This document shows, one piece after another, positions 1-3,000 of a stretch of 64,000 nt of DNA (positions are counted from its first letter, which is position 1; each line of letters begins with the position of its first letter). The stretch comes from Euglena gracilis. Its lineage: Eukaryota. The stretch covers positions 15,518,140-15,582,139 of the forward strand of contig CP154954.1 of NCBI GenBank assembly GCA_039621445.1. Reading direction: 5' to 3'. Made by a program: the position numbers and the translations under genes. The notes beneath the pieces are model-generated. The model was not told the DNA's origin and did not search any database. It worked only from the letters and a program-made list of their open reading frames with translations.

Positions 1-3000
1 AGCTGGTGGAATGCCGCAAGGACCTCCGCCCCGGCTGGGGGGGGGGGGGGAGGCGATGCCCTGCTGTGCCTCGGCCATTCATGCACCGTGCTGCGCCGTG
101 CTGTGGTGTGTCGTGCTCCACAAAGACAGCCACAGCACAACGCAGCAAAATGCACCACAACACAGCACGGCACACGACACTGCGGTACGACACAACGTGG
201 CACGCCACACCACACCACGGCACACAACAGCACGGCACAGCCACAGCACAGCACACCACAGCGTTAAGTGTTTGCAGATATTATGTGCGTGCTCTGTGTT
301 TGTTATAATTTGTGTGATTGTGCATCACTGGGGACGTTGTGTGGCTGGTGTGCCCGCTTCTGTGCTGCCCGCAGCTGCGGGCACCGCAGGGCAGGGCGTT
401 GCTAAAGAGAATTTGACCCCACCTCCAGGGGGGTCCAGCCAGCCAGCAGCTTTTTTCCAGCCAGCGGCCTTTTTCAGCCCGGGATCCCCTCCCCACCTCT
501 CGAGTTTTATTTATTTCCAGCCGCCCTTTGGGCGACTGGGCGGTAACGGATTTATCGCTTTTGGAGGTGCAATAATCGGCCAAAAATGGGTCAATAATGG
601 GTGAAAATGGGTCGGAAAAAGGCCAGCCAGGGCAAATTTGGGTCAAATAATCATTTTTTTTTTAGCTGAATTGGCAGTTTTTTGGACATTTTTTGCATTT
701 TTGATTTTTTGGTACCCGGTTCGACCCCGGGTCGCTCCAGCCCGGGACTCCTAGGAGGGGGAGGGGGGGGGGCAGCCAGCAGCCATTTTCCCGCCAGCCC
801 ACATTTTCCAGCCTCTGAGCTGGCACCCCGGGGTCGTTAAAAGACGCCCCGCCCCAGGGTCAGGAATCAGTTGCCGTACCGGCAGATCCCCATCGTCCTG
901 GCCAGCCCCGCCTGGGGCCTGGCTGGCGGGGAGGGCCTGGCCCCCAGCCGGCCCGCACTCTGCCCTGCAGCTGCTGCGGAACGGCGTGTGGCCTGAAGGC
1001 GCGACAATCTTCGCGGACGTCACCAAGGACATTGAGGCGGGGGGCCGGTCCAGTCGGCTCCAGGCGGGAAACCACACATTTCTTTCTGGCCAAAAAATCT
1101 CACAATAATTTTTCACCGCTGATTTCATGATTTTTATGATTTTCACGATTTTTATGCTTTTTATGATTTTTGTGATTTTCATTGCTGGTCACATACACAT
1201 TGCTCCAAAAGCTTTTCTTTGAGGGCCTTTCACATGATTTATTTCTTTTCACTTGGGGGTTTTCAGGCATTCTTCGGTTGGTTGGTTTGGCCCCTGGGGG
1301 GCCCACCAGTTTTTCCCGTCCAGCCCTGCTCACCCCTCCCTCCCGATCCTCCACCGGCCCCCCTCGCCACTCCTCGGGGGGCTGGGGGGCCCCACTGTCG
1401 CCCCGCTGTCCCCCCCGAAGGGCCACCTGCGGCCCTCCCTCGGGCTGGACGCCCCTCCGGAGTCCCTCACGCTCACCGGCCTGCGGCAGTACAAACCCCC
1501 GCCCAGGCCCGGGGGCTGGGGGGGGGGGCGTCTCCCACCACGGCCTCCCGCCATCGGGGGGGGGGGTGCCAACGAGTCATGGCTAATTTCTCCCCCAGGA
1601 CCCCCCAGGACCCCCGCAGGTCCGCAGGGCCCCCCAGGTCAGGCTTAGGTGGCCGGATTCGCACTTGAGCTTTTTTGTTGTTGGCTTGCGCACATGCGCA
1701 AATTAACAAAATTATTTATTTCGGCTGTGTGGCTGCAGGGGGGTTTGAAAACACGGTGACAAGGGAATGCAAAAAATGAGCAAAATTCTGTTTTTTGGGG
1801 GTTGTAACCCCTGGGACTTTGGTCAAAAATGGTGTTTTGGGGTTCTGGAAATGGGCTCCGCACGTCGAATCCCCGGAACCTTCCTCCCTGGGAGTGAAAA
1901 AGACGCAAAAAAAGCGGCAAAGGAACAGGGACTTTACTGCCCTTCTTGCTCTTTTCGGCTGTTTCCCCGGGTGAACCTGAACTGCCGGCGGTGTGTGTCC
2001 TGCGTGTTTGCCGGATTGCTTGATTGCTTTTCTTGCGGCTCCTTGGTGTGGTGTTTTTGACACATTTTGCAAAGTGTGGCGAGGGAGTGCCAAGGTGTGT
2101 GAGTGCAGGGTGAAGGGTGTAGGGTGGGGTGAAGGGTGTTGGTATTAAAAGGTATTAGGGGGCCAATTCTACTGTAGTGACAGGTCCCAGGAATGGTTGA
2201 GAGAGGATCTGCTGAAGGTGGTTACACAGCCCCCTGATAACGGTGCACGTCCGCCGCAATTTAAAAAAACTTGTTATTTGTAGGAATTGTTGAAAAATTA
2301 AAACATTTGATTGGTTGCATGAAAGCAGTGGGACTTACCCCCCACAAATTATGTGTCAAAACTGGGGCGTTGCACTTTACTGCCCTTCTTGCGCGCAAAT
2401 GCGCCCATAAACAAATTTTATTTGTGTGTGCAAATGCGCGCACCAACCACTTGGGGAAACTGGTATGCAGATGGTTGATGCAAAGGGCCCCGGTGGGTGC
2501 TGAACCAAACTTTTTTTTTCACTCAGAGTCACCCCCGGGGGAGGGGTGGGTGGGTCCAGGGCTGACCCTCCCCACCCCCACCCCACCCCCACCCCCACCC
2601 CGTCCCGTGTCCAGGGGTCTGGTTATGGGTCGAGCCGACATGTTTTGCCGTTTCATGTCATAAATGATGGGGAAATGGGTTTCTGTTTGTTTCCTGAGGC
2701 CAACCTGAGCTTTAAAGGCCCCAAAGTCCGCTATCTTCAAGAAAAGTCAAAAACGATGAAAATGGGGGGGTTTCAAAATGATTTTTTTTTTGCAATCCCC
2801 CAGCCCTGCCCCCCCCCATTTGAGAAAGCTTTTTTTTGCAATTTCATTTCATCAAAGGCGGAGTTCAACTTTCTGGTTAAGAAAGTTTTAGATCGGTACC
2901 AGTGACTCGTTGGGCTTGTGCGTGGGGGGGGGTCGACTCTGGGAGAAACCCAGTGTATCGTTGAAAAAGTTTTTGAGCTTTCACATGCCCCTAAAATCAT

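Follow-up and report, generated by a model that had tools for sequence, protein, structure and literature searches.

This study concerns a 64,000-nucleotide stretch of the Euglena gracilis genome (assembly GCA_039621445.1, contig CP154954.1, positions 15,518,140 to 15,582,139 of the forward strand), called the window below, and a 460-bp plus-strand element at its positions 392-851 that resembles a MITE (miniature inverted-repeat transposable element). The original prediction for this stretch had read the element as a hAT MITE which, together with exactly one copy of its target-site duplication (TSD) of 8 bp, forms a nonconventional (NC) intron. Direct reading of the letters confirmed most of the anatomy on which that prediction was built: a left 8-nt flank CCGCAGGG (384-391), a 5' terminal inverted repeat CAGGGCGT (392-399), a 3' terminal inverted repeat ACGCCCCG (844-851) and a right 8-nt flank CCCCAGGG (852-859). 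The ends are complementary at seven of eight positions and the two TSD-like flanks are identical at seven of eight. The CTG assigned to the 3' end had to be corrected. While the 5' end carries CAG at 392-394, the would-be +4 to +6 motif of an NC intron, the 3' end carries CCG at 849-851 in place of the required CTG.

The element was characterized from its end letters and by a repeat finder, blastn, alignment and a scan against shuffled sequence. Its terminal inverted repeat is short; the repeat finder reported a longer pair (389-399/844-854, 11 nt at 91%) only by including the flanking GGG and CCC. The ends read CAGGG at 5' and, as reverse complement, CGGGG at 3', and a count by eye gave 9/14 matches over a longer span. 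Inside these ends lie three direct CCAGCC…TTTTCC subterminal units at 422-493, which form a high-copy core (family D1 of the repeat finder), and further units at 773-813 near the 3' end. The units at both ends point the same way and are thus direct rather than inverted repeats.

The element belongs to a repeat family with diverged relatives elsewhere in the window, at 11313-11819 (minus strand), 10880-11215 and 16975-17257. A blastn search of 392-851 against the window returned matches at 17044-17199, 11108-11181, 11382-11432 and 11739-11777. The relative at 11313-11819 bears on the 5' border: it shares the start CAGGG..TT.CTAAAG with 392-851 (aligned starts CAGGGTTTTCTAAAG in the minus-strand copy and CAGGGCGTTGCTAAAG in 392-851), the left flanks are unrelated, and homology begins exactly at CAGGG. 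This copy has CTGAGG…CCCTG ends of its own and 8-nt flanks that agree at 5/8 positions. Other searches of the window were negative. The exact 16-nt end motif of 392-851 has no second match there, and at up to 3 mismatches it was found 3 times against 4.27 expected; a core-motif search recovered no additional copies above chance; and no 5' partner was found for the copy ending at 17234. In contigs from a DNA run labelled with a second organism (X17), bin 409-510 had a DNA word depth of 12,533 and bin 715-816 one of 3,994, against ~8-20 in the single-copy flanks. This puts the copy number of the inner CCAGCC…TTTTCC motif on the order of one thousand, corresponding to a ~1,000-fold excess of depth. 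The X17 contigs contain 392-851 at the same site with identical junctions, and thus the two organism labels are not polymorphic for this insertion.

To judge the end and flank configuration against chance, the window was scanned for C[AG]G…C[CT]G pairs lying 60-2500 nt apart with ends matching at no fewer than 7/8 positions and 8-nt flanks matching at no fewer than 7/8. Nine pairs were detected, three of which are poly-G artefacts, and 30 dinucleotide shuffles averaged 0.77 pairs and never exceeded 5, an 8- to 12-fold excess in the window over the shuffles. Given 9 observed pairs and 0.77 shuffled ones, 392-851 is one of about six real-looking pairs where fewer than one is expected by chance. 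Since the window holds CAG…CTG elements flanked by 8-bp duplications, this genome does contain elements of the kind that produce them, and 392-851 is plausibly a worn member. The original prediction had likened 392-851 to a MITE at 61835-62130, whose inverted ends and perfect 8-bp duplication are as it described. The likeness holds for CAGG and for an A/T-rich subterminal stretch resembling TTAAAG, but blastn found no homology between the two.

Whether such ends could act in splicing was assessed against the code for NC introns established by knock-in genetics, 5'-N3CDG…CH'GN5-6|R, as given in the available parts of PMC12501133. There, splicing is lost on single substitutions within CAG or CTG; the donor spacer has to measure exactly 3 nt; the acceptor spacer measures 5 nt, with one extra nucleotide tolerated, two weak and three dead; and the only motif pairs reported to splice are CAG-CTG, CGG-CCG, CGG-CTG and CTG-CAG. 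At the 5' end of the element, GGG plus CAG (389-394) conforms to N3CDG, and at the 3' end the motif is followed by 5 nt and then by a purine, G857. A helix between 389-399 and 844-854 would pair 10 of 11 positions with a duplex energy of -28.3 kcal/mol. The 3' motif itself violates the code, because CCG at 849-851 opposite CAG places an A·C mismatch at the critical middle base, and under the published rules (PMC12501133, as far as available) 392-851 should not splice on its own ends.

We mapped three raw RNA runs (X21, X22 and X24, which carry the same species label) and the DNA run X17 on positions 1-3040, a range chosen to avoid the long (AT)n and (TG)n tracts. X24 is stranded and its first mates lie on the minus strand in all reads, which places the gene on the plus strand. 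RNA was found on the left end of the window (5 X24 reads), in bin 919-1020 (~484 bases over the three runs, trailing off into 1021-1049) and in bins 1327-1428 and 1429-1530 (~1,100 bases together, coverage 1327-1501). No locus-specific RNA was found between ~47 and 918, and none on 307-391 or 852-918, in runs that cover the nearby exons, if thinly. Only 21 RNA bases fall in bin 307-408 and 7 in bin 817-918, contiguous with repeat-core reads of a single X22 pair; by depth arithmetic this pair lies at ~388-472 and ~764-823 and seemingly derives from unspliced RNA of the locus. Depth like that of the exon at bin 919-1020 would be expected from 857 onward if this were exon, and none is seen. The open reading frame listings contain no recognizable coding exon adjoining 392-851, and no RNA joint 388/857 occurs among the joints listed. 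The RNA check that the original prediction had proposed for this junction thus gave it no support, within the limits of thin coverage, and gave none to its placement of the element between exons: the exons with RNA are those at ~931/956-1049 and ~1330-1501. Its statement that the flanks join in frame is correct in that both sides happen to share an open frame, but this is trivial since the 468 nt removed are a multiple of 3.

Two further observations come from these alignments. At position 1471, 11/11 RNA reads of the three runs have A, and the window and the X17 DNA contigs have G, which reflects either a strain difference or RNA editing. The X17 contigs also differ from the window by 13 substitutions and a 3-nt deletion at 37-307, a low-complexity CACAGCAC-rich tract, with zero differences in 308-423 and 794-907.

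Positions 1-28 probably represent the end of an exon (exon A) and a larger NC intron may then run from 29 to 955, or alternatively to 930, with the element inside it. Code-compliant pairs between 1-130 and 900-975 were enumerated, and the listed pairings whose 3' motif lies at 923-950, giving exon starts at 931-957, all use CGG at 32-34. Paired with CCG 948-950, this motif is fully Watson-Crick and would give an exon end at 28 and an exon start at 956 (N5) or 957 (N6); a perfect 11-bp helix, 31-41/941-951, accompanies this pairing with a duplex energy of -34 kcal/mol. Paired with CTG 923-925, through a G·U pair and N5, it would give an exon start at 931. Both exon starts are code-compliant with CGG 32-34, and CGG-CCG and CGG-CTG have each been shown to splice (PMC12501133, available parts). 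The RNA gap at ~47-918 is consistent with either end, the binned depths of X21 and X24 (given below) agree with the starts 956 and 931, and either start puts the element within a host intron of ~0.9 kb. The next exon (exon B) would occupy 956-1049, or start at 931, as suggested by RNA depth in bins 919-1020 and 1021-1122 and by a reading frame with …LLRNGVWPEGATIFADVTKDIEAGG. If the 948-950 pairing is right, the 8-nt flanks of the host intron, CTCCGCCC and GCCCGCAC, are identical at 5/8 positions.

These observations suggest that 392-851 is probably a decayed MITE copy nested in a larger NC intron and removed with its host rather than spliced by itself. It would be an old copy, itself non-autonomous, from a euglenid MITE family that is abundant and combines direct CCAGCC…TTTTCC units with CAGGG ends and, subterminally, an A/T-rich stretch resembling TTAAAG. 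It would have inserted with an 8-bp TSD of which seven of eight positions are still equal, and it would now be a passenger in a ~0.9-kb NC intron of the plus-strand gene. This host intron would start at 29 (N3 plus CGG 32-34) and end at 955 (CCG 948-950 plus N5), or alternatively at 930, its ends being joined by the 31-41/941-951 helix. The element would leave with the host intron and not via its own ends, because its 3' motif, apparently decayed to CCG, no longer pairs with the 5' CAG. The anatomy, the membership in a repeat family, the flanks empty of RNA and the breach of the code are shown by the data, and the exact borders of the host intron and the hAT-like nature of the family are inferred. 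The locus itself is thus most likely an ordinary one, a dead MITE inside an intron.

Several points weigh against this reading. The RNA is very thin, with 34, 24 and 18 reads placed in the three runs, mostly on the repeat core. Among the joints listed, all of them DNA joints and with 12 more outside the listing, neither 28|931 nor 28|956 occurs as an RNA joint. The two runs that bear on the start of exon B imply different positions: the X21 depth of 0.64 per orientation equals 65 bases, or 956-1020, and the X24 depth of 2.66 equals 271 bases and fits about three pieces over 931-1020, both values being arithmetic on binned depth rather than read-level junctions. The implied starts, 956 and 931, are 25 nt apart, which is no multiple of 3, and base 956 is a C where a purine is preferred by the code. 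Neither the 31-41/941-951 helix nor the 389-399/844-854 helix at the ends of the element forms in the minimum-free-energy fold of 1-1000. In the X17 contigs, 308-391 and 852-907 are without differences, as opposed to the variable 37-307 described above; this invariance of the flanks could hint at constraint, with the qualification that 100-300 is a hypervariable low-complexity tract. Finally, similarity with the copy at 16975-17257 reaches 872, ~20 nt beyond position 851. This extension has a p of ~0.05, and it was equalled by 255/5000 shuffles and 261/5000 random 30-mers, which makes it marginal.

The last of these points bears on an explanation in which no discrete insertion exists and 392-851 is a mosaic of dispersed repeat units, with its end pair and 7/8 flanks arising by chance. 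A mosaic would account for an inverted end of only 7/8, for subterminal units that are direct and not inverted, for the exact 16-nt end motif having no second match in the window (and no excess at up to 3 mismatches), and for the similarity to the copy at 17235-17257 that runs beyond the 3' end; moreover, chance alone would yield ~0.8 such configurations per window. We nevertheless regard it as unlikely, as the window has an 8- to 12-fold excess of these configurations, homology to the 11313-11819 copy, itself with CTGAGG…CCCTG ends and 5/8 flanks, sets in right at the 5' end, and the past-end similarity is only marginal. The interpretation advanced by the original prediction, that the element plus 8 nt (389-856) is a stand-alone NC intron directly between exons and spliced 388|857, did not survive and now seems highly improbable. 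In its favour are the N3 and CAG at 389-394, the 5 nt past the 3' motif, the purine at 857, the 11-nt end helix with a single mismatch, a frame open on both sides and flanks that are invariant in the X17 contigs. Against these stand flanks with no locus-specific RNA in three runs in which exon B received ~484 bases, a joint that is absent among those listed, a central A·C pair of a kind that abolishes splicing in the published assay (PMC12501133, available parts) and a flanking 'protein' (…AAAGTA|GSGISCRTGRSPSS…) of low complexity.

An intermediate possibility is that the element was formerly a stand-alone NC intron, or is still an inner nested intron removed before its host, and that a T-to-C change at 850 accounts for the decayed motif. 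The geometry is exactly code-like save for this one transition, the TSD-like flanks are kept at 7/8, and the single X22 read pair apparently derived from unspliced RNA of the locus would fit an inner intron. However, the flanks lack any exon signal, and a MITE lying inside an intron need never have been spliced alone. X17 also has CCG, in a contig that shows 0 differences over 794-907, and hence the change at 850 is not recent. We consider this history quite doubtful, and retain the reading of 392-851 as a passenger of the host intron.

Other elements elsewhere in the window have intact ends. A second scan, for CAG…CTG pairs with ends matching at no fewer than 11/14 positions, gave 117 pairs, or 102 after a low-complexity filter. 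Two of these 102 have perfect 8/8 flanks (49584-51188 and 61835-62130), where ~0.002 are expected on the estimate that flank bases are equiprobable, and flanks offset by 8 nt as a control never exceeded 5/8. The reference MITE at 61835-62130 (no strand assigned) has CAGGCTTCTTTTTAAG ends, inverted over 21 nt at 90%, and the perfect 8-bp TSD ATGGTGGG, a direct repeat that becomes 9 nt on counting the last G of the element. The element at 49584-51188 (no strand assigned) is a 1.6-kb, non-autonomous and non-coding one with CAGGGTTGGGC/CAGGGATGGGC ends (fuller ends CAGGGTTGGGCGGC and CAGGGATGGGCAAC). Its 8-bp duplication CGCTATAT is perfect, which gives it the look of a recent insertion. In both elements the base before the left copy of the duplication equals the last G of the element. 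The 61835 MITE lies, with a truncated second copy at 62147-62302, inside a 2.1-kb element at 60470-62585 (CAGGG(T/A)CT…CCAAT…CCC ends, flanks TGCCCTGG/TGTCCTGG identical at 7/8), forming a nested insertion. It is also located 9 nt downstream of a conventional-looking acceptor, tttttgcag|GATGGTGGG, with the 5' half of a sister copy 16 nt after it.

Less regular configurations were also encountered. The pair at 63058-63212 has 8-nt flanks agreeing at 6/8, and a MITE of the same style at 59857-60135 (CAGAGGGCTTTTTTTTTAG…CTTAAAAAAAACCCTG) is bordered by a perfect 9-nt repeat, AACAGGTCC, instead of 8 nt. The pair at 18465-19076 was rejected as a TSD-flanked example, its flanks being inverted rather than direct and part of a longer palindrome. 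This palindromic element, at 18440-19100, has an inverted repeat CAGACCCTGAAAAA matching at 14/14 that extends into the flanks gtgccaggtaaatttt/aaaatttacttggcac, so that its true ends lie farther out. A Pfam search with 19 open reading frames of the 1.6-kb (9 frames) and 2.1-kb elements gave no match at E<=0.1, only sub-threshold noise (E 0.15 and 0.23), and Rfam and tRNA scans of the window had no matches.

One NC intron of the window, and only one, is verified by RNA, at 1501-3423 (plus strand) downstream of exon B. Four reads of X21 and four of X22 extend beyond position 1501 as a consensus sequence (agreement 0.96-0.99) that corresponds to 3425 and the bases after it. The junction slides over CCCCG, from 1496|3420 to 1501|3425, and is genuinely nonconventional, since GT-AG is lacking in every register. 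This 1.9-kb intron contains microsatellites and other repeats. The exon that follows it (3425-3547, 41 aa) had no match among 28 word-sharing candidates of 73-2000 aa, and among 1.84 billion representatives it had two weak, repetitive matches (E 1.8e-4 and 7.6e-4).

The lack of support for 392-851 as an intron in its own right is distinct from a more general idea, built on the original prediction, that euglenid NC introns as a class are insertions of CAG…CTG-ended, hAT-like MITEs with 8-bp (sometimes 9-bp) duplications, the 3-nt and 5-nt (to 6-nt) spacers outside the motifs adding up to one split TSD. NC splicing would then remove the element plus one TSD copy and exactly restore the pre-insertion mRNA, and a new insertion with intact ends would start life as a working intron. 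Applied to 61835-62130, as a matter of logic rather than observation, the rule would take out GGG, the element and ATGGT, and leave one ATGGTGGG with a purine first. The arithmetic agrees with the published spacers (PMC12501133), with the 8-nt repeats of a recently gained intron (PMC4770533), both as available, and with the perfect-TSD elements of the window, but some observations speak against a strict rule. The sole RNA-verified NC intron, 1501-3423, fits CAG 1504 and CTG 3414 only with a 7-nt 3' spacer and has a junction repeat of 5 nt, and the 59857-60135 MITE with its 9-nt repeat is a further departure. The window nevertheless shows what the raw material of such a process could look like, with the intact 49584-51188 and 61835-62130, the decayed 392-851 and a putative host intron, 29-955, with 5/8 flanks. 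The general hypothesis is attractive and consistent with the published record and with the other elements of the window, and we judge it about as likely as not to be true.

Parts of this proposal have been anticipated. In the available text of PMC4770533, intron 4 of gapC in E. agilis ACOI 323, a single strain-specific and recently gained NC intron, is described with eight-nucleotide direct repeats that exceed those of older introns in length, from which the authors infer double-strand-break repair. A MITE origin of NC introns was proposed in 2013 (PMC3935182) and is favoured in the accessible portion of PMC11282704, which calls CAG/CTG inverted ends and the junction repeats 'TSD-like'; in PMC12501133, 84.4% of introns have junction repeats ('slidable' introns) and MITEs are named in the discussion. 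A text search of these four papers, in the portions available, did not find the term 'hAT', and the same search found no mention of target-site duplication in PMC12501133 and PMC4770533. Our literature search found no explicit link of hAT or of an 8-bp TSD to euglenid NC introns, although an 8-nt statistic may already be contained in Table S3 of PMC4770533, which gives repeat lengths per intron, or in the sliding distances of PMC12501133 (Datasets S7-S8, SI Fig. S3). The MITE origin, the inverted ends and the TSD-like repeats are thus already published as separate pieces (PMC11282704, available portion), and the 8-bp arithmetic and the naming of hAT were not found in print. These questions bear on the origin of euglenid NC introns and on the logic of their 3-nt and 5-nt spacers. 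If the hypothesis is true, a split 8-bp duplication would explain the spacing rule (PMC12501133), the 'slidable' junction repeats and the 8-nt repeats of the new intron (PMC4770533), as these stand in the text available, and would predict a transposon family that supplies new introns.

The name hAT was part of the original prediction, and TSD length and CAGGG ends, the two features behind the name, make the CAG…CTG family a hAT-like candidate. Terminal inverted repeats of hAT MITEs are of the (C/T)A(G/A)NG type and usually 10-25 bp long. An 8-bp TSD is seen at 7/8 for 392-851 and at 8/8 for two other CAG…CTG elements. Homology stops at the element border on the 5' side; on the 3' side, one copy stays similar past the border, as described above. 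Ac/Ds elements have C/TAGGGATGAAA ends and an 8-bp TSD (PMC3260210, available part), and hAT elements and MITEs of this type have in common with 392-851 the 8-nt flank duplication, the CAGGG start, small non-coding copies and subterminal repeats; 49584-51188 likewise ends in CAGGGATG. In contrast, the inverted ends of 392-851 are only 8 nt long with a mismatch, the relative at 59857-60135 has a 9-nt repeat, and no autonomous partner or hAT transposase was seen in the window (Pfam, 19 open reading frames of the two larger elements). The sole DNA transposons that we found documented for E. gracilis are Merlin elements, with a terminal GG and an 8-9-bp TSD (PMC8101967, available part). They share the 8-bp TSD with 392-851, but a Merlin-derived MITE does not fit, as the ends CAG…C(C/T)G abut the duplication and there is no terminal GG.

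The closest comparison is with euglenid NC introns themselves. As described in the available parts of PMC12501133 and of Milanowski et al. (PMC3935182 and PMC4770533), these share with 392-851 the N3-CAG start, a 5-nt spacer between the 3' motif and a purine, a helix formed by the ends, and border repeats that are short and direct. The element differs from them in having CCG opposite CAG, no RNA sign of exonic flanks and a probable position nested within the 29-930/955 intron. Introners are spliceosomal, use co-opted GT/GC-AG sites and have TSDs of 3 or so nt. The introners of Micromonas, Aureococcus and others (PMC11282704, available portion) follow the same logic as that proposed here, in which a DNA transposon and its TSD leave the RNA and the coding sequence is restored. 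The euglenid system differs from them in its CAG/CTG pairing and its fixed 3- and 5-nt spacers.

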